Positions 10,061 to 19,224 of a DNA stretch of 38,683 bases are shown piece after piece. Numbering within the stretch: the first letter of the stretch is position 1; every line of letters starts with the position of its first letter. Where the stretch lies: positions 1 to 38,683 of the IMG/VR virus record IMGVR_UViG_3300026299_000007; one strand, written 5' to 3'. The notes under the pieces are model-generated. The model saw nothing but the letters and a program-made list of their open reading frames with translations, was not told the origin of the DNA and did no database searches. The stretch is from a virus. Its lineage: Duplodnaviria; Caudoviricetes. Made by a program: the position numbers and the translations under genes.

Positions 10061-10486
10061 TCAAGCGCCCTCGTCGAAATACGCCGTCGTCCAGGTCTCC
10101 TGCCACCACATGTGCCCGTCACGAAACGCCGACAGCGTGCTCTGGCGCCGGGTCAGCAGCTCGTAATCCGGGCCGCTGCTCCAGCCCAGCAGCGCTGCAC
10201 GGATCTGCTTGCGCAGCGCATCCATATCGACCTCGGCCGCAGCGCCGGTGGCGTCGGCGACATTGCGCACCACCAGCACGATGGCGATCGTCACCTGTAC
10301 CAGCTGGCCCTGCCCGTCGCTGACATCGATGTCGAGCTCTGCGCCAGACTCATCGACCGTGAACACGTAGGCCGCCGGCGTTGCCGCCGGGTTGGTCTCG
10401 GTGGCGCGCTGGAACCCGGCGGCGCCTTCGACCAGCTTCAGCGCCGGCACTTCGGCCAGCAGGCGGGCGATGATCGCGGCGATCAT
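10061..10486 (-). CDS. Tail terminator / gp37-like head-tail joining protein
   Basis: 141 aa with TPAAYV and R.ALLGW motifs; sits between the gp36-like gene and the tail tube. Confidence 0.75.
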   Translation of the reverse strand: MIAAIIARLLAEVPALKLVEGAAGFQRATETNPAATPAAYVFTVDESGAELDIDVSDGQGQLVQVTIAIVLVVRNVADATGAAAEVDMDALRKQIRAALLGWSSGPDYELLTRRQSTLSAFRDGHMWWQETWTTAYFDEGA

Positions 10487-10893
10487 GCGCCGAACTCGCT
10501 GTCGACATTGCTGCGTCCGAAGACGGCCGGCACGGTGGCGATCTCGACCAGGCGCGACGTCGGCGAAGTGCTCAGCGCCGCCGCCCCTTCGAGCTGCGCG
10601 CGGCCGGCGGCGATGTCACGCAGGTAAGCACGGGCGTCTTCGTAGTCACGCCGGGCGACGTCGGTCGCCGCGTCGCCAAGCAGGCGGTAGCGGGCGATCA
10701 CGCAGGCAATCTGCAGGATGCGGGCAGAGACCGGCGACACCGGCACGCTGTAGCGCACCCCCAGGTAGCCGTCGATCTCCGCGTCGGCATCGGCCAGCGC
10801 GTTGTCGACCCCGAGCACCGGCAGCACGGTTTCGCGCTGCGCGACGTCCTGCGCGTAGCGCGCTTCGAGGTCGGTGCGGGTGGCGTAGGTCAC
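10483..10893 (-). CDS. Mu gp36-like head-tail connector (DUF1320)
   Basis: GTG start (VTYATRTDL) overlaps the upstream stop. Motifs ALADA.AEIDGYL..RY..P and IARYRL. Confidence 0.88.
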   Translation of the reverse strand: MTYATRTDLEARYAQDVAQRETVLPVLGVDNALADADAEIDGYLGVRYSVPVSPVSARILQIACVIARYRLLGDAATDVARRDYEDARAYLRDIAAGRAQLEGAAALSTSPTSRLVEIATVPAVFGRSNVDSEFGA

Positions 10894-11348
10894 AGCCCGA
10901 GCGCCTCGTATTGCGACGCCGCCCAGGCATCGGCGGCCTTGCAGGCACCGGCATACGTGACAAGCGCGGTGGTTTGCCCGGCGGTCAGCACCACCAGGCC
11001 GGCGGCGGCGCCGGAAGCCATGTGCAGGAATGCCAGCTGATCCTCGGGCGTATAGCCGTGATCGAGAATGCGTTGCTTGCGGCGCATCTTGACCAGCTCG
11101 CAATGCGTGCTGGCGGCCTTGATCGCGCCGCGCACAGCGTCGTCGAGCGTCACCGATTGGATGCTGGCGGCGATCTCCGCGGGCTGCCCTCCCGGCAGGC
11201 TGTAGCCGTCCGGTAGGCTGACATAGGTCAGCGCCCCGATGGTCGCCAGCTCGGTGCCGACGCTATTTCCATCGGCATCGACGGGCAGGCGCAGCTCGCG
11301 CGTGACCTGGCTATCGATAAACTTTTGGTAGCTGAGGATAGAGCTCAC
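10890..11348 (-). CDS. DGR-associated accessory protein (possible fibre assembly chaperone)
   Basis: GTG start at 11348 after a GGGAGG RBS; 152 aa; overlaps the RT 3' end and is coupled (GTGA) to the gp36-like gene. Function is inferred only. Confidence 0.6.
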   Translation of the reverse strand: MSSILSYQKFIDSQVTRELRLPVDADGNSVGTELATIGALTYVSLPDGYSLPGGQPAEIAASIQSVTLDDAVRGAIKAASTHCELVKMRRKQRILDHGYTPEDQLAFLHMASGAAAGLVVLTAGQTTALVTYAGACKAADAWAASQYEALGL

Positions 11349-12297
11349 AGCGGGCCTCCCGTAGAGTGCGCAGCATGTGCTGCAGTGAGTGAGTGCGCCG
11401 GGCATGGCCCAGCACCGACGCCAGGCTATCCAGCTGGCCGCGTCGGGCAGCCTGGCGAAAAACGTAGAGACTGCGGCGGCGCACAAAGCGGCGGCTAGCC
11501 CACGTGCGATAACCAACAAAGTTGATACCGCGCGTCGCAGGTGCCAACGTGAAACGGGACAAGACCAGGCCAAGGCCGTCGAGAAACTCGACGATGCGCG
11601 CCTGCGCAGCCAGAAGCGCCAGACGCGGCAGACCAAACAGCACGAAGTCATCGACATAGCGACAGTAACGGCGCACGCCAAGCGTCCGCTTGATGAAATG
11701 GTCGAGCGGGTTGAGGTAGATCAGCGCATAGAGCTGGGAGAGCAGGTTCCCGATCGGAATACCGACCGGCTCGCCATAGTCGGCAAAGCGCATCATCAGA
11801 TCGACGAATCGCACATCCTTGATCTTGCGCGCTACCTGCGCCCGCAGCACCAAGCGGTCGATGCGATAAAAGAACTTGCGAATATCGAGCTTCAGAACGT
11901 AGCTGCCCGCCGGGCTGGCCTGTAATGCCGACTGCGCATAATCGGCCGCCTTGTGCGTGCCGTAGCCGCGCCGGCAGGCGAATGACTGAGCAATGAAGCC
12001 GCGCTCGAATATCGGCCCGCACACGGCATAGACCGCATGCTGCACCACCAGGTCACGAAAAGCCGGGGCGTAGATTCGCCGTGGCTTGGGCTCGCTGACC
12101 TCGAAGCTGTGGTACGGCTGCGGGCGATAACTGCCGTCGGCAAGCTCCTGATAAAGGGCGTCGAGATTGCGCGCCAAGTGCTTCTCGAATGCAAAGCAGG
12201 CGCGCTTGCCGTGCTTGTTGCGTGCGGCGGCGTGAAACGCGGCCAGCAGCGCCTCAGCGGTAAACGCCTGCTCGTAAAGATGGCCGACGCGCCTCAT
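11311..12297 (-). CDS. brt: DGR reverse transcriptase
   Basis: 328 aa RT-only protein with KPRRIYAPAFRDLVVQHA, LKLDIRKFF, GIPIGNLLSQ (DGR-type SQ motif), YCRYVDDF and GINFVGY. Confidence 0.96.
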   Translation of the reverse strand: MRRVGHLYEQAFTAEALLAAFHAAARNKHGKRACFAFEKHLARNLDALYQELADGSYRPQPYHSFEVSEPKPRRIYAPAFRDLVVQHAVYAVCGPIFERGFIAQSFACRRGYGTHKAADYAQSALQASPAGSYVLKLDIRKFFYRIDRLVLRAQVARKIKDVRFVDLMMRFADYGEPVGIPIGNLLSQLYALIYLNPLDHFIKRTLGVRRYCRYVDDFVLFGLPRLALLAAQARIVEFLDGLGLVLSRFTLAPATRGINFVGYRTWASRRFVRRRSLYVFRQAARRGQLDSLASVLGHARRTHSLQHMLRTLREARCELYPQLPKVYR

Positions 12298-12451
12298 GTC
12301 GCCCGGCCTTCGAGCCCGCCGAAAGCGGGCCTACCAGAAAGGCGGAAGCCCGCCGATTTCGCCGCAGCACAAAACACCCGCGCTGCGCGCCGGAAAGCGC
12401 CTCCCTTGATTCCACTACGACCAAGCCGCGGCCCTTGAGGTGAAATCGAGT
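12298..12451 (-). ncRNA. DGR RNA spacer (sp) region between TR and RT
   Basis: Non-coding GC-rich stretch with hairpins (e.g. GCCCGC-TTTCG-GCGGGC) at the position of the priming spacer in characterised DGRs. Confidence 0.5.
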
Positions 12452-12566
12452 CCGCACGGAACCCCACGTTATCGTTCGAGTTGCTCCGCGCATTGTTGAG
12501 ATTCAACGCCCAGACCCCGGCATTCGAGCTGCTGTTCCAGTTCCCGCCGGAGATCGTGCACATGTC
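12452..12566 (-). repeat. DGR template repeat (TR)
   Basis: 115 nt, ungapped match to 13007-13121 with 9 mismatches, all at A on the coding strand. Contains 26 adenines and 9 AAY codons. Confidence 0.96.
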
Positions 12567-12975
12567 AAGACGCCTCCCGTTTATCAAGCTGGCGCTCGGC
12601 GACAATCCAGCCGCCGATCATCCTGCCCAGATCATCAATCAAGCGCGACAGCGCGAGGTAGCGATGTTCGCCAGCCGCGGCCGGCGATCGCTCGACACGC
12701 TTGCCGTCCTTGAATTCAAAATAGCCCAGCGTGTAAGCCAGCCTCACGAACATGCGCAATTGCTCGTGGCGGATGTCGAGATTGGCCATGGTTGTTTTCT
12801 TGTAATAGCGCTTCTGGCACTCGACGATGAAGCCATAGGTCTCGTAGGCCGCGCGGCGAATCTCCAGCGCCAGGCCGAACTTTTCATGGCTCGGAAAGTG
12901 ATTCAAATGCACATTCATTAACTTCGCGAACTCCATGAATTTACGGTCTAGCTTTGCTTCGTCGTGCAAGCCCAT
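12565..12975 (-). CDS. avd: DGR accessory variability determinant (Avd, four-helix bundle)
   Basis: 136 aa, basic and helical, with HFP.HEKF.L..EIR, KKTT..NLDI.HEQLR and LGRMIGGW motifs; located between VR and TR. Confidence 0.92.
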   Translation of the reverse strand: MGLHDEAKLDRKFMEFAKLMNVHLNHFPSHEKFGLALEIRRAAYETYGFIVECQKRYYKKTTMANLDIRHEQLRMFVRLAYTLGYFEFKDGKRVERSPAAAGEHRYLALSRLIDDLGRMIGGWIVAERQLDKREAS

Positions 12976-12992
12976 CGCTATCGCTCGGGCCG

Positions 12993-14339
12993 TCAGAGAT
13001 ACAAGGCCGCACGGAACCCCACGTTATCGCCCGAGTTGCCCCGCGCAATGTTGAGATTCAACGCCCAGACCCCGGCATTCGAGCCGCTGCTCCAGCTCCC
13101 GCCGGAGACCGCGCACATGTCGTTCGGGCGGTAGTCATAAAACCCATCATTCCCGAACGCGTTCGCGCCCCCGACACCGCCCGCAAGCGGAATTCCCAGA
13201 CACGCAGACACCCATCCGATACCGCTCGCCAGCTCGCTAAACACTTGCGCCGCATTGCCAAAAATCTTCGTCGTTGACGATGCTGCGGCGGCGCCGACGG
13301 TCGCGCCCAGATTGTCGTAATTTGCGGCCCGCCCACTGGCACCCCACGCGTCGGTTGACAGGGTATTGCCGCTGGTTAGGCTCGACATCGCGACGGAAGG
13401 ATTTACGGCAAAATAACTGCTGCTGTCGGACGTCATTCCGAGGTTGATTTCCCACATGAGTCCATTTAGGTCGGCCACGCCGCACGCCTGCCCGTTGTGG
13501 GTGGTTTTCTCGAAAGGAACAGCGCTGCCCGTCTTGGCGCAGGAGGAATACCCATCTGAGACATAGAGGACGGACGCATCCTGGCTATCGCGCAGGCCAC
13601 CATTAGTGCAGCCCTTTGGGAAGTTGTTCGTCGCGTCGTACCATGCGCACCATGTCGTGCTCGCGCTGGCTTGCGCGTGCGCATAGGAGAGCATCGCCAG
13701 GGCCGCGAATATGAATCGACTGGAGCAGAAGAATTTCGGGCCGCGGGTTTTGGCAGCGTCCACCGCGCCGTAATAGGCATTTGCCGGCGATCCAACAAGA
13801 CCCGAAAACGGGCTATGCGCACTATTGGACGATAGCGGATTGCCATTCCAGACCGCAACCGCGACGCCCGATGCACTGGCCGAGCAGAGGTATTTGTCGA
13901 CGAAGAATCCGGGCTTGGTGACACCGCCGTCAATGAAGGCGCGATGAAGGGCATAACCCTCGGCGGCGGCCTGCGCCGAGCTGGCGAACTGCCGCGCATC
14001 GACAATGCCGACGGCGTTGACCGGCAAGCCGTTGCTCGTCGTGCCCCATAGATAATAGAAGGCAGGCACCCAGACCATCACCGAGCCGTCGGCGGTCTGA
14101 TAGTTGCCGTAGTTCGGCGCCGCCGGATCTTCGTAGCCGAACAGGCCGACCATACCGCGCGGCAATGGCTCGGTGCATACCCCGACGCCGAAGCCCTGCG
14201 TACCGGGAACGCCAATGCCGCGCGCCGCGGAGAGCAGGCCGCTCGGCCCCACCGGACCGACCACGCGGCCATCCAGGCCGACCACCTGGCGTCCGCCGAT
14301 GGTCGAGAGTTGCGCTTCTTTCCAGCTGCCTTTGGGCAC
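12993..14339 (-). CDS. DGR target protein with C-terminal C-type-lectin/FGE-sulfatase-like variable domain
   Basis: GTG start after an AAGGAG RBS; 448 aa; GFFVDKY, DLNGLMWE and terminal GGSW...VGFRA motifs; VR at the extreme 3' end. Confidence 0.92.
   Translation of the reverse strand: MPKGSWKEAQLSTIGGRQVVGLDGRVVGPVGPSGLLSAARGIGVPGTQGFGVGVCTEPLPRGMVGLFGYEDPAAPNYGNYQTADGSVMVWVPAFYYLWGTTSNGLPVNAVGIVDARQFASSAQAAAEGYALHRAFIDGGVTKPGFFVDKYLCSASASGVAVAVWNGNPLSSNSAHSPFSGLVGSPANAYYGAVDAAKTRGPKFFCSSRFIFAALAMLSYAHAQASASTTWCAWYDATNNFPKGCTNGGLRDSQDASVLYVSDGYSSCAKTGSAVPFEKTTHNGQACGVADLNGLMWEINLGMTSDSSSYFAVNPSVAMSSLTSGNTLSTDAWGASGRAANYDNLGATVGAAAASSTTKIFGNAAQVFSELASGIGWVSACLGIPLAGGVGGANAFGNDGFYDYRPNDMCAVSGGSWSSGSNAGVWALNLNIARGNSGDNVGFRAALYL
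13007..13121 (-). repeat. DGR variable repeat (VR), ending in the GC-rich/IMH region
   Basis: Copy of TR at a 555-nt offset with 8 A>G and 1 A>T changes. Diverges from TR after GGGGTTCCGTGCGG. Confidence 0.96.
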
Positions 14340-14361
14340 GTCGGGCTCCTTGTTCGAGCGT

Positions 14362-14706
14362 TTAGAGGGCGGTGACGACCAGCAGCGGCTCGGCGAGCAG
14401 TTCGGCCCACTGCTCGTCGCTGAAATCGTCGCGATTGACGGCCGTGGCCTCGCGATACCAGCGCCGGCCGGCGCGGCAGAAGCCTGCCGCTGGCACGGCG
14501 GTGATGCGGTGCGTGAAGTGCGGGGCTGCCGGCGCGGAGGGCTCGACCGGAGCCGCTTCCGTCACGGCCGGCTCGATCGGCGCCGCGTCTGCGGGGGCGT
14601 CGCCCGCCTTGGTCACCTGGTCGGCCGCAGGCGCCTCTTCCGTCGCAACCTGTTCGATCGGCGCCTGCTCGGCGGCTGGGGGATTCTTGGCTTTTGTGGG
14701 TGACAT
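14362..14706 (-). CDS. Mu gp35-like / HI1506-related head-associated protein
   Basis: Ala/Pro/Glu-rich N-terminus followed by GF.RAGR.W...L.AEP.L.V; usual position after the Mu-type capsid gene. Confidence 0.75.
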   Translation of the reverse strand: MSPTKAKNPPAAEQAPIEQVATEEAPAADQVTKAGDAPADAAPIEPAVTEAAPVEPSAPAAPHFTHRITAVPAAGFCRAGRRWYREATAVNRDDFSDEQWAELLAEPLLVVTAL

Positions 14707-14736
14707 TTCCGGTCCTTGTCTTTTCTGTCCTGGACT

Positions 14737-14761
14737 CCCCAGGGCCGTCTCGGCCCTGGGG
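14737..14761. other. Perfect 11-bp GC hairpin downstream of the capsid gene
   Basis: CCCCAGGGCCG-TCT-CGGCCCTGGGG with no U-tract on the coding strand; possibly an mRNA stabiliser or attenuator. Confidence 0.5.
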
Positions 14762-14794
14762 GTTAGCGCGCTTCTCTCGCTGCGGGGTATTCGC

Positions 14795-15811
14795 TTAGGT
14801 CAGCCAGGGGCAGACGTAGAGCTCGACGGCCTTGAAGTTGGTGTTGCTGGCGCCGCTGGCGAGCGTTTCGGCCTCGATCAGCGCCTTGCCTGCGGCGCGG
14901 TTGCTCGGGGCGACGACCAGGAGGTTCGGGGTGATGCCGAGCGGGCGGCCTTCGTCGCTGGCGAAGGCCATCATCGCGGCGATGGCGGCGTTGAAGTTGG
15001 TGGCGTCCAGCGTCTGCTTCGATCCGTAGGCCATCTGGGGGAAGCCGTAGCCGACGTTGGCGCGGGCATCGACGCCGTAGCGGTATTCGGCACGCATCCA
15101 GACCCCTTCGTCGCTGGCGTCGGTCATCTGGGTCAGGTCGTATTCGCGGCGCTTCTGGAAGATGATCGGCTTGAGCGGGCGTGTGGTGTCGAGCAGGTAC
15201 CAGGCGCTGCTGCCGCCGCCGCCGGAGTTGCTGAAGGTGCCGGCGCCGACCGGGTGATCGGTGTCGAAGAAATACTGGCCGTCGTAGCAGAGGGTGGTGA
15301 AGCCGGCAGCGAGCAGCGGAAAGACCAGCTCATCCGGATGCACGGCGGCGGCGTAGCCCATTGACGAAAAGAGCGGGGTCAGAACGCCGTAGCTGTCATC
15401 CTCGATATCGTCACGCGGAACGCCGATGCTGGCCTCATAGGGCTTGTTGGTGATCTGGTAGCCGCTGGCCGCGATGCCTTTGACCTGGCGATCGCCGATC
15501 CACTCGCGCAACTTTGGAAACTGCCCCAGCCAGCCGTAGTTCTCGACCTTGCTGGTCGATGGCACCAGCGTCGCCACCTTGCTCCACATCGGCGTGACCC
15601 CGGCGAAGGCCTGGTTGTAGGCGGTCTTGAAACCGTTGTACATGGCATTGAGGCTGTCGCGGTTGATGATCAGCCCGCCGACGGCGATCATCATTCCGTC
15701 GGCCGTCGAGATCGGCACAGACGGCAGCAGGAAGGCGGCGGCAGACAGCACGATGGCGATCACGCCGCACACGGCAAGGGCCAGGTGGCGCGGGGCGAAA
15801 AGCTTGTTCAT
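14795..15811 (-). CDS. Mu gpT-like major capsid protein with a hydrophobic N-terminal extension
   Basis: VPST...E.YGWLGQFP.LREWIGDR, CYDGQYFFDTDHP, KPIIFQ.R and YGVDAR.N.GYG motifs; ATG preceded by AAGGAG. Confidence 0.93.
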   Translation of the reverse strand: MNKLFAPRHLALAVCGVIAIVLSAAAFLLPSVPISTADGMMIAVGGLIINRDSLNAMYNGFKTAYNQAFAGVTPMWSKVATLVPSTSKVENYGWLGQFPKLREWIGDRQVKGIAASGYQITNKPYEASIGVPRDDIEDDSYGVLTPLFSSMGYAAAVHPDELVFPLLAAGFTTLCYDGQYFFDTDHPVGAGTFSNSGGGGSSAWYLLDTTRPLKPIIFQKRREYDLTQMTDASDEGVWMRAEYRYGVDARANVGYGFPQMAYGSKQTLDATNFNAAIAAMMAFASDEGRPLGITPNLLVVAPSNRAAGKALIEAETLASGASNTNFKAVELYVCPWLT

Positions 15812-17622: not shown

Positions 17623-18147
17623 TCAGTCGTGGACCGTGCGCAGGTGGCAATTGCTTTCCGCATCGCAGACGACTTGCGTGATCTGGCCCTGCGTGCCGCG
17701 CGCCTCGTAGAAGCTGCGGCCGTTGCTTTGCTTGAAGCGCAGCGGCTCGCCAGCGAGGGGAAACCCGCTTTCGGCGAGAACACGCGTCACTCTTTCACGC
17801 TCCACGTCGGGCGCTGCGCCCGGCGCGCTGGCTGGCGCGGCGCTGGCGACCGCCCGTTCCGGGGCAGCAATCGGCGGCGAGTAGGCAGCCGTCTGGGCCG
17901 ATGCTGCCTCGTGATAGCCCAAGCCTTGCAGGCACTCCGTGGTCCGGTCCGAAATCCATACCTCGACAAACATGTTGCCAGACAGCCCATTGGCTTGCGC
18001 GGATTGCATGCCGTATTGCCGGCAGGTCAGCCGGTCTCGCCGGAATTGCTCGTCGGTTGCCCCTGCCTTCAACCAGACCTTCGGGGCGGTGGCGACGCAG
18101 CCGACAACAGAGAGGGCGAGCGCGAGGATAAGCAATTGCCTTTTCAT
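17623..18147 (-). CDS. Moron-encoded lipoprotein
   Basis: MKRQLLILALALSVVGC signal peptide with lipobox Cys; two Cys-paired domains joined by an Ala/Pro linker. Confidence 0.78.
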   Translation of the reverse strand: MKRQLLILALALSVVGCVATAPKVWLKAGATDEQFRRDRLTCRQYGMQSAQANGLSGNMFVEVWISDRTTECLQGLGYHEAASAQTAAYSPPIAAPERAVASAAPASAPGAAPDVERERVTRVLAESGFPLAGEPLRFKQSNGRSFYEARGTQGQITQVVCDAESNCHLRTVHD

Positions 18148-18206
18148 GTCAGGGCTCTCGGAAAAGATGCGTGCCATGCCGCACGCCGGACGACATGTTA
18201 AACCCA

Positions 18207-18235
18207 TTGCGCCCCCGGTGGTACAAGCGTAATAT
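18207..18235 (+). promoter_or_regulatory. Sigma70-like promoter for the + strand moron operon
   Basis: TTGCGC-N17-TAATAT directly upstream of the structured leader. Confidence 0.6.
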
Positions 18236-18242
18236 CGAACGC

Positions 18243-18440
18243 ACTAAATGTAAGGCGGTAGCTGCTCCGATCTGCAGCCACTGCCGCCCGCCTCCCAGCG
18301 GGCGTTTGCTTTTCTGGTCGGGTCGAGAGCGCTGAATACAACACCCGCAAGGGGAATGAGCGCCGGGCTGCCTTACAGCCTAGTTGAGACCCGACCGCCC
18401 GCCGGCTACTAACCGGCGGTTCTCAACTGAATGTAAGGAG
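18243..18440 (+). ncRNA. P4 CI-like / c4-type antisense RNA with flanking target sites
   Basis: Closing stem GGTCGGGTC (18316-18324) / GACCCGACC (18388-18396). Internal CCTTACA..TAGTTGAGA is complementary to TGTAAGG at 18249 and to TCTCAACTG.ATGTAAGG at 18421-18438, which overlaps the RBS. A terminator-like hairpin lies at 18285-18313. Confidence 0.7.
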
Positions 18441-18446
18441 CCCGTC

Positions 18447-18650
18447 ATGAATGCTTGTGTTATCCCCTTCCCGGCTCGCCGCGCAGCGGCAGAGCAAACC
18501 CCATACGAAGCCCTCAAGGCCTGCCTGGCCGATGCGCTGACCACAGAGGCGCCGCGCCGTGGCGCCGGGCCTGGCAGCCAGCGCGAGGACGAGATCCTCA
18601 AGCTGCTGCGGCGCATCGATCGCCGCTTGGCAAAACTGGCAGCGGCGTAG
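18447..18650 (+). CDS. Small hypothetical protein (first gene under antisense control)
   Basis: 67 aa; AAGGAG RBS overlaps the antisense target; helical C-terminus ILKLLRRIDRRL. Confidence 0.7.
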   Translation: MNACVIPFPARRAAAEQTPYEALKACLADALTTEAPRRGAGPGSQREDEILKLLRRIDRRLAKLAAA

Positions 18651-18651
18651 G

Positions 18652-19224
18652 ATGACGGCCATGAATACACCGCTCAAGACCCAGCGCATCGAATGGCTAG
18701 CGAAGACGGCCGAAGGCTATACCGGTGCCGGCTTCAACCCTGAAGGAAGGATGGCGGCGCGGGGATCGCACCGGCGCCCCTTGGCTATCGCGGCACGGTG
18801 CGGCCAGTGCATCGGCAGCACAGACCCCAATGCTGGCGAGAGGATCGCCGACTGCCCGATGGTGGTCTGCCCGCTGTACCCGCACCGCTCGCACCAGCAC
18901 GGCAAGTACCGCGACAACCTGGCGGCGCTGAAGGCGACCCTGCCGCCGGCCCCGCCAGGGGTGGTCCTCAGCCCGATGGAACGTGCGCGGCTCAATCCCG
19001 AATCGCGAGCCATGGCGGTGCGCGCCTATTGCTATGACTGCATGGGCGGGCAGCCCGTTGGCCGGACCAATACCAACGGCAACGTGCGAAAGATGGTCGG
19101 CGACTGCAGCGTCACCCGCTGCGCGCTTTGGGACGTTCGCCCGTGGCAAAACGCGGGCGACGAGGAGGAGAACGGCGAGAGCGAGGAAAACGCAGATGGC
19201 CAAGAATGCGAAGATGAAATTTAA
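18652..19224 (+). CDS. Hypothetical protein with two CxxC...Cx4C putative zinc-binding repeats and an acidic tail
   Basis: Repeats AIAARCGQCIG...IADCPMVVCPL and AVRAYCYDCMG...VGDCSVTRCAL; starts just after the upstream stop. Confidence 0.72.
   Translation: MTAMNTPLKTQRIEWLAKTAEGYTGAGFNPEGRMAARGSHRRPLAIAARCGQCIGSTDPNAGERIADCPMVVCPLYPHRSHQHGKYRDNLAALKATLPPAPPGVVLSPMERARLNPESRAMAVRAYCYDCMGGQPVGRTNTNGNVRKMVGDCSVTRCALWDVRPWQNAGDEEENGESEENADGQECEDEI

Follow-up and report, generated by a model that had tools for sequence, protein, structure and literature searches.

Organization of the locus

The DNA analyzed here (the window: 38,683 nucleotides, positions 1 to 38,683 of the IMG/VR virus record IMGVR_UViG_3300026299_000007) represents a Mu-like phage of 38.7 kb whose tail is non-contractile. 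The element under study, a diversity-generating retroelement (DGR), lies in the head module with the gene that it diversifies, here called the target, and a small downstream gene, here called the partner. By PHROG and Pfam profiles the phage encodes MuA, MuB, a Mor-like activator, a Mu-type portal, protease and capsid, a tail tube, a tape measure and an Rcc01698-type tip; with MuA, MuB and Mu-type head genes all found, it was placed among the Mu-like transposable phages. The names Mu gp35/gp36, Mor and IMH* follow profile matches, cited papers or general usage.

All features described are on the minus strand. The target (12993..14339, 448 aa, GTG start) is followed by avd (12565..12975; PF22296 E 9e-14, phrog_3206, and NF033474 E 1e-18, under cut-off), the template repeat (TR, 12449..12566), an intact reverse transcriptase gene (RT, 11311..12297, 328 aa; phrog_1423 E 2e-98, PF00078, GIPIGNLLSQ and YVDD motifs) and the partner (10890..11348, 152 aa, GTG start). 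The slot that holds these genes is bounded upstream by a gp35/FluMu_N-like gene (14362..14706; PF17891 E 3e-4, under the family cut-off), itself preceded by the major capsid gene of the Mu gpT family (14795..15808; PF10124 E 5e-121, phrog_371), and downstream by a gp36-like head-tail adaptor gene (10483..10893; PF07030 E 2e-25). The gaps are 22 nt between the gp35-like gene and the target, 17 nt between target and avd, and a 151 nt spacer between TR and RT; the partner starts 38 nt inside the 3' end of RT, and its stop overlaps the gp36 start by 4 nt (GTGA). A sigma-70 promoter scan of positions 10400-15000 found none, and promoter and terminator scans gave results near chance.

Gene coordinates, the repeat pair and the RT motifs bore out the first-pass annotation of this DNA, which had described an intact, co-oriented cassette of target, avd, TR, RT and a last gene between the gp35-like gene and gp36, ending in the GTGA overlap. 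Its statement that the cassette lies more than 6 kb from the tail-tip genes holds for the large tip gene (6.7 kb away) and the fiber (10.0 kb), but not for the hub (5.5 kb). A misassembly, which it had named among possible refutations, was ruled out because an independent contig (L001) is 100% identical to the window over 10,587 nt and relatives have the same layout.

Among 20 sequencing runs holding all or part of the stretch, the 18 that were labeled are wastewater or activated-sludge metagenomes. Target homologs with a window-type N-terminus and 66-69% identity carry names that come from Accumulibacter sp. assemblies, so Accumulibacter or a relative of it is the likely host.

Anatomy and activity of the DGR

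The variable repeat (VR; 13004..13121, target codons 407-445 of 448) and TR are each 118 nt long and differ at 10 of 118 positions, all 10 of them TR adenines (chance 9e-8). TR contains 27 adenines in 18 codons, 9 of which are AAY; the count of 26 given at first pass is reached if the final adenine, at the IMH* boundary, is excluded. In theory these adenines allow ~10^15.9 protein variants. With RT and avd intact, the order avd-TR-RT, and a VR placed C-terminally in a C-type lectin fold, the DGR was classed as architecture B1. VR is followed by only a weak fold (-5.5 kcal/mol) and no strong GC-rich hairpin; such a hairpin after the initiation of mutagenic homing (IMH) site is described as not universal among DGRs (PMC5758913). 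The TR-RT spacer folds no better than its shuffles (z -0.69).

In four 90% clusters of targets bearing the same N-terminal segment as the window's, the per-site pairwise difference was 0.17, 0.03, 0.19 and 0.20 within VR and, in the same order, 0.010, 0, 0.001 and 0.001 outside it; the cluster at 0.03 is a lineage with a deleted DGR core (L008/L232). The largest 90% cluster read has 17 members, of which 15 were listed and one fragment was excluded; its 14 full-length proteins carry 11 distinct VRs, and 13 columns vary within VR while only 2 of the 409 columns elsewhere do. A phage ~98% identical to the window, recovered from runs X3 and X5 of two studies, has 9 VR differences, 7 at TR adenines and 2 elsewhere, and the X3 contig has 2 differences in its other 443 nt. 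The DGR in the window is thus real, and its close relatives differ almost exclusively in VR; a VR invariant across strains is what the first-pass annotation had named as a refutation.

The avd-TR-RT core has been lost in four separate deletions that kept target and partner (L008/L232, L142/L228, L029 and the X3/X5 phage). The deletion in the X3/X5 phage corresponds to window positions 11648-12927 and fuses avd codon 16 to RT codon 217. Such a loss would freeze one VR variant, with target and partner staying. L012 was also listed among natural losses of the core.

Fold and family of the target

The target was modeled with AlphaFold2 from an alignment of 107 homologs at a predicted local distance difference test score (pLDDT) of 87, with residues 1-40 poorly resolved. 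The best Foldseek match was TaqVP (5vf4; E 2.6e-16, template modeling score 0.53-0.62, 17% identity), followed by Mtd (E 6e-5) and then by proteins of the formylglycine-generating enzyme (FGE) type. The modeled fold is a TaqVP/Mtd-type (FGE-type) C-type lectin fold. The target has no Pfam match and consists of a single lectin-fold body, so it lacks the tandem immunoglobulin (Ig) domains of Hoc-like proteins. The body begins near residue 42 and is joined across the family (2,983 proteins at E 0.001 among 7,997 candidates scored) to many different N-termini.

Some distant members depart from this plan. In the homologs of L013, L026, L027 and L040 an E1_FCCH-like domain (PF16190) is inserted within the lectin body. 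Large lytic Campylobacter phages carry a distant lectin-body homolog (26-28% identity; L245:3569-5320 in phage CPt10). These homologs sit by themselves on the opposite strand and were uninformative; the surroundings of the CPt10 copy have no annotated DGR genes.

A slot with exchangeable payloads

The gp35-like gene was linked to the JBD30 protein gp39, reported to be a Soc-like capsid decoration trimer (PMC11445458), by a three-round iterated hidden Markov model seeded with the window gp35 (E 2.5e-15). The link came from the iterated profile: direct phmmer of the gp35-like protein against solved chains gave no real match. The survey of the gp35-gp36 slot in Mu-like genomes that had been suggested at first pass was carried out on 71 non-self loci that have both bounding genes. 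The distance between the two bounding genes was <100 nt in 39 loci, 100-1000 nt in 22 and >1 kb in 10.

At a capsid identity of at least 76%, all 8 loci have a long slot gene that opens with the same N-terminal segment (~35 residues, 14235..14339 in the window). Among 7 slot genes its pairwise identity is 45-76% over 42 residues; these identities serve as an independent measure of sharing because the segment profile was built from 6 of the same 8 loci, which represent ~6 distinct phages, all from a single clade. In four of the eight loci the payload is the lectin, twice together with a full DGR and twice with a deleted core. The remaining payloads are an SGNH-like domain in L059 (Pfam E 4e-7, just under cut-off), whose capsid and gp36 are 97% and 94% identical to those of the window, a polysaccharide deacetylase in L060 (E 3.5e-15) and a Gly-rich repeat protein without a Pfam match in L066 and L068, each fused to the segment. 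By sequence, the payloads of L059, L063 and L066 have no meaningful solved relative.

The exchange points are visible in the DNA. Between L066 and L142 the flanks on both sides are 96% identical, identity is 83% over roughly the first 34 codons of the slot gene, and beyond that the sequences are unrelated as far as the gp36 start; L059 and the window show the same clean swap pattern, and identity to DGR-less relatives picks up again at the gp36 start codon. The stop/start overlap with gp36 also occurs in DGR-less payloads, which makes it a property of the slot and not of the DGR, and because DGR-less relatives fill the slot with other payloads behind the same N-terminus and the same overlap, the slot is not owned by the DGR. 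The first-pass annotation had noted that the target opens with a short segment (~40 aa) and has no obvious fiber shaft or baseplate anchor; from its identity across payloads and the swap points, the segment itself is likely a capsid anchor.

Outside this clade a long slot gene without the anchor was found in 2 of 63 distant loci (L063, and L065, a PHROG hydrolase or fiber). A word-index search for the anchor found 3 proteins among 34 candidates, and a pattern scan with a 10-row anchor alignment returned the already-known loci and L227 only. Other slot cargo in distant Mu-like phages looked, by eye, acyl-carrier-like (L077:5866-6177, L084:5051-5299) or tyrosine-recombinase-like (L063:8323-9267).

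Placement on the head or the tail

L066, L140 and L142 share with the window the protease, cement and capsid genes (68-79%; capsid 77-78%) and the anchor segment; their gp36 is only 40-41% identical, their tube is of another family and their tail tip differs. L149 and L150 share the gp36 (83%), tube (89%) and tape measure (71-74%) of the window but have another capsid family and no insert. The anchor segment thus tracks the capsid type and not the neck or tail type, which favors head display.

Lectin-body homologs were labeled by neighboring genes after most near-duplicates and loci without informative neighbors had been left out; among the 41 labeled loci, 18 were head or neck and 23 were tail. 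A quick tree of the lectin body required 8 changes between head and tail labels, at least 4 of them forced by strong branches, and the window fell within a clade (support 99) of 6 loci that are all head modules, non-Mu phages included. In L054 the homolog stands immediately after the major capsid gene. From the label changes and the head-located clade, the lectin module was therefore read as a portable adhesin for both kinds of slot, occupying a head slot in the branch of the window. On these comparisons the target is rather likely displayed on the capsid, and we lean toward seeing the slot as a head accessory site whose products (esterase, deacetylase, repeat protein or variable lectin) engage surfaces and hold the particle to host extracellular polymers before the tail finds its receptor. 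Head or neck display had been proposed at first pass, and it gained from the gp39 homolog upstream, the recurrence of the location in relatives and the linkage of the N-terminal segment to the capsid.

It is unlikely, though worth serious consideration, that the target is instead a receptor-binding protein on the neck or tail tip, for instance on the 214-aa fiber (251-895) as Mtd is on BPP-1, and that its position among head genes is incidental. The tail-located majority of labeled homologs fits this, as do homologs lying between adaptor and head-closure genes (L027, L036), the re-reading of Ig-type "Hoc-like" targets as tail fibers by Roux et al. in the part of their work cited here (PMC8144416), and the fiber of the window itself, which matches only positions 136-226 of a 445-position fiber profile and so may lack a distal domain. 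However, the anchor is kept where gp36 is only 40% identical, where the tail tip is of other families and where no homolog of the 214-aa fiber was found (G001, the 98%-complete genome of L066), and it is absent from L149 and L150 despite their window-type neck and tail tube. A similar short tail fiber of 224 aa was noted in the L060 genome.

Less probable still is that the slot product stays out of the particle and acts on the floc matrix as a free lectin or enzyme, expressed late and set free at lysis (or produced by the lysogen). Enzyme payloads could work free, TaqVP as the closest fold is a monomer for which the consulted part of its description states no virion role (PMC6328139), and unrelated cargo occurs in the same slot (L063, L077, L084); but if the protein were free, four unrelated payloads would not need to keep one constant N-terminal segment, the body carries fiber-type N-termini when it occurs in tail modules, as expected of a displayed module, and the target N-terminus does not, by eye, resemble a signal peptide.

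Genes and domains next to other head-located homologs gave further leads. The first ~50 residues of the L005, L013, L027, L040, P0013 and P0023 homologs resemble the genes found after HK97-type capsid genes (hhalign 49%, no more than a lead); a gp39-like domain at the start of such homologs gained no support from profiles and is kept as a lead by eye. A common gene family of ~90 aa stands directly before head-located targets (L012:6377-6658, L020:1436-1714, L050:930-1190, L051:4793-5074), mostly just after the portal gene; it is Tyr/Thr-rich, ends in W-V-x-Q and is a candidate spike base, and the members that were scanned match nothing in PHROG, Pfam or NCBIfam. Small beta-rich genes just upstream of the target in three other loci (L036:7615-7935, L022:5459-5785, L039:7624-7896) look by eye like jelly-roll spike bases and have no profile match.

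The partner gene

The last gene of the cassette had been annotated at first pass as a DGR accessory gene; the data assign it to the target instead. The partner was found downstream of the target in 47 of 52 loci (60 loci less 8 with too little downstream sequence; the window's own copy and near-duplicates were included), comprising all 30 loci with a full RT, all 3 that retain an RT remnant and 14 of the 19 that lack RT. A role as retrohoming factor was rejected, as the partner is present in 17 of 22 loci without a full RT and survives the four separate DGR deletions. Because the DGR-less payloads behind the same anchor have no partner gene, the partner was taken to serve the lectin body. Partner distances followed target distances (rho 0.42, partial 0.41) more than those of the adjacent RT (0.19, partial -0.18) in 23 loci whose pairs are not independent.

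The partner model is confident (pLDDT 97), and no relative was recognized: there was no Pfam, NCBIfam or solved-sequence match and no Foldseek match at E 0.001, VIA gave only generic helical hits (Z at most 6.2), and the L013 partner sequence found nothing in 50,697 phage records. The nearest named Atlas clusters, XkdW and DUF4376, lie at 0.86-0.88, under the reliable range, and none of 33 members matches these Pfam families at E 0.1.

Target body and partner were modeled as a complex from 33-row paired alignments. The interaction prediction score from aligned errors (ipSAE) was 0.76 against 0.00 for the best of three controls. Of 157 solved complexes 116 attained this mark, and of 215 mismatched pairs 2 did, in a calibration that holds only roughly for the alignments used here. 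The three runs share at least 98% of their contacts, and partner pLDDT is 91 or higher. The predicted interface covers 30 target residues, 18 outside VR (236-237, 246-250, 252, 255, 266, 357, 363, 391-394, 397, 401) and 12 inside (415, 417-421, 428, 430-431, 435, 437, 439); 11 of the latter 12 are TR-adenine codons and include all 9 AAY codons. Contacts are tightest between partner 13-16 and target 391-394, and between target 246-249 and the partner residues E33, T81 and L85. The model thus predicts with good confidence that the partner binds the target.

Within one phage lineage (L140-L143) partners differ by 1-3 residues while the VRs differ widely. On the modeled interface, a cap is somewhat preferred over a co-adhesin as the role of the partner. 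The least probable alternative, a head-located target with the partner as a permanent second subunit forming a composite site with VR, or with VR docking as an artifact and the partner a folding helper elsewhere, can point to best-confidence contacts on the invariant rim (target 391-394, 397, 237, 246-249), to the XkdW and DUF4376 neighbors and to average interface conservation, but it sits poorly with three concordant runs, three null controls and the near-identical L140-L143 partners, which fit a VR-indifferent cap better than a co-selected site.

Proposed mechanism

The preferred reading, to which a rough probability of 0.55 is given, is that an intact DGR rewrites the binding face of a lectin held on the capsid exterior by a 35-residue N-terminal anchor, and that the partner caps the variable face. 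Gene spacing and overlaps suggest a late transcript that spans capsid, decoration, target, avd, TR, RT, partner and gp36. Retrohoming, established for DGRs and with activity seen in relatives, would rewrite VR adenines. Acting as a chaperone of assembly or as a transit cap, the partner would clamp the invariant rim and cover the variable pocket while folding and assembly take place, which would let arbitrary variants fold without sticking to the producing cell. The anchor would then dock the lectin on the mature capsid, and the particle would be tethered to host extracellular polymers, as with RcGTA spikes (PMC7296036). The enzyme payloads point to a polysaccharide as the ligand, although FGE-type lectin folds need not bind sugar; glycan pathways of Accumulibacter are reported to be variable (PMC12925313).

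Several observations weigh against this reading. Gene order is no proof of virion location, the lectin family is not head-specific (23 of 41 labeled loci have tail genes as neighbors), and nothing but target, DGR core and partner occupies the slot, with no spike-base gene like that of RcGTA or HFTV1. The anchor, known from a handful of related phages whose loci also supplied its profile, has a pLDDT of 47-56 in the AlphaFold2 model and no meaningful solved-structure match, and the small N-terminal domains of other head-located homologs scored 0.5% against the gp35/gp39 profile in hhalign. For the partner, the complex calibration is approximate, conservation of the non-VR interface is not raised (0.67 against an average of 0.68), 5 of 19 RT-less loci lack the gene and 4 of these 5 keep the rim motif, and in L007 the partner (78%) and RT (93%) are nearer to the window than the target is (66%), which is evidence that the partner can move with RT. 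Contigs of run X1, the likely source, include no VR variant, and contigs drop rare variants.

A wider proposal is offered tentatively, at somewhat below even odds: the capsid would carry a plug-in socket for either fixed matrix-attacking enzymes or a DGR-randomized lectin, and this lectin family, large at about 3,000 protein clusters, would come with a dedicated "universal lid", a partner indifferent to VR sequence that stays after DGR loss. A lectin cap, if true, would bear on a practical question, the way in which a virus can fold and carry up to 10^15 different binding sites and not adhere to the producer cell. Display work could profit from a VR-indifferent cap and from a 35-residue capsid tag. 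Should the host be Accumulibacter, the system is relevant to phage attack in phosphorus-removal sludge.

Neighboring genes

In the clade of the window the major capsid protein has a hydrophobic N-terminal extension before the Mu gpT domain (first ~45 codons of 14795-15808; also L066 and L072), and the L150 capsid, unrelated to the window's, has a similar-looking one. The extension could tether the protein to a membrane or be a leader that is cleaved off, or else translation could truly start further downstream. Between gpG and the protease (17623-19203) are genes of 194, 88 and 168 aa without a PHROG match; an anti-CRISPR gene occupies the equivalent position in JBD30.

Comparison with known systems

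The closest DGR in layout is that of BPP-1 (mtd-avd-TR-brt, architecture B1, PMC5758913), which, as described there, shares the order target-avd-TR-RT, a C-terminal VR, adenine-specific change and an FGE-type C-type lectin. In contrast to BPP-1, the target of the window lies in the head operon and lacks the trimer-forming N-terminal domains of Mtd, and the locus has a conserved partner gene after RT and no strong GC-rich hairpin after VR. TaqVP, from a Thermus aquaticus prophage DGR (PDB 5vf4, PMC6328139), is the best structural match; it is described as a monomer with no location stated in the text drawn on here, whereas the target of the window has an N-terminal segment common to non-DGR payloads and a predicted partner. 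The accessory gene of the CH1 DGR is of another type: it is 160-169 aa with an isoelectric point (pI) of ~4.7 and occurs only in DGRs without avd, while the partner is 152 aa with a pI of 5.2 and avd is present.

DGRs in transposable phages, as in the window, have been published for Hankyphage (PMC12135933) and Mushu (PMC5883640). The target of Hankyphage is described as a tail fiber (PMC12135933), unlike the reading preferred here. Those of Mushu and Brigit were called Hoc-like capsid decorations from their Ig domains (PMC5883640, PMC11792537, PMC10805732); Roux et al., in the portion cited, re-read such Ig targets as tail fibers and predicted viral DGR targets to be mostly tail proteins (PMC8144416). 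As far as these descriptions go, the Mushu and Brigit targets are Ig-repeat proteins assigned by domain likeness, whereas in the window the target is a lectin, and its slot is defined by payload swaps and by linkage to the capsid. With the published head-located target disputed, this locus offers a testable case with natural controls, namely the same phage with and without its DGR and with other payloads.

Among head structures, the RcGTA (gene transfer agent) spike fiber is reported to be attached by a 9-residue N-terminal peptide (PMC7296036), and the HFTV1 turret to carry a deacetylase domain (PMC12494034). Both resemble the slot genes in combining a short N-terminal attachment with a glycan-engaging domain, and the turret head is deacetylase-like, as is the L060 payload. 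They differ in using a separate base protein, and the cited passages mention no DGR for either. L060 and the anchor gave no sequence match to RcGTA or HFTV1 chains, and neither an RcGTA-type (I/L)G repeat in the target N-terminus nor a jelly-roll base gene in the slot was present. The head module itself is like that of JBD30 (Casadabanvirus), as described in PMC11445458: the capsids are 48% identical, the gp39 decoration protein has its homolog and gp41 corresponds to the adaptor, and the major tail protein of L142-type relatives belongs to the Ig-bearing family. JBD30 differs in having only a 55-aa gene (gp40) in the same slot.

In the mostly open-access literature searched, no published swappable slot, capping partner or DGR lectin target on a head was found; this family could already be covered in the PMC8144416 supplementary notes or among the PAG1-4 alignments in PMC5758913. 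Mu-like DGR phages are already known, and a head-located target has been proposed for Mushu, though disputed; what this locus would add to the published record is the swappable slot and the predicted cap.

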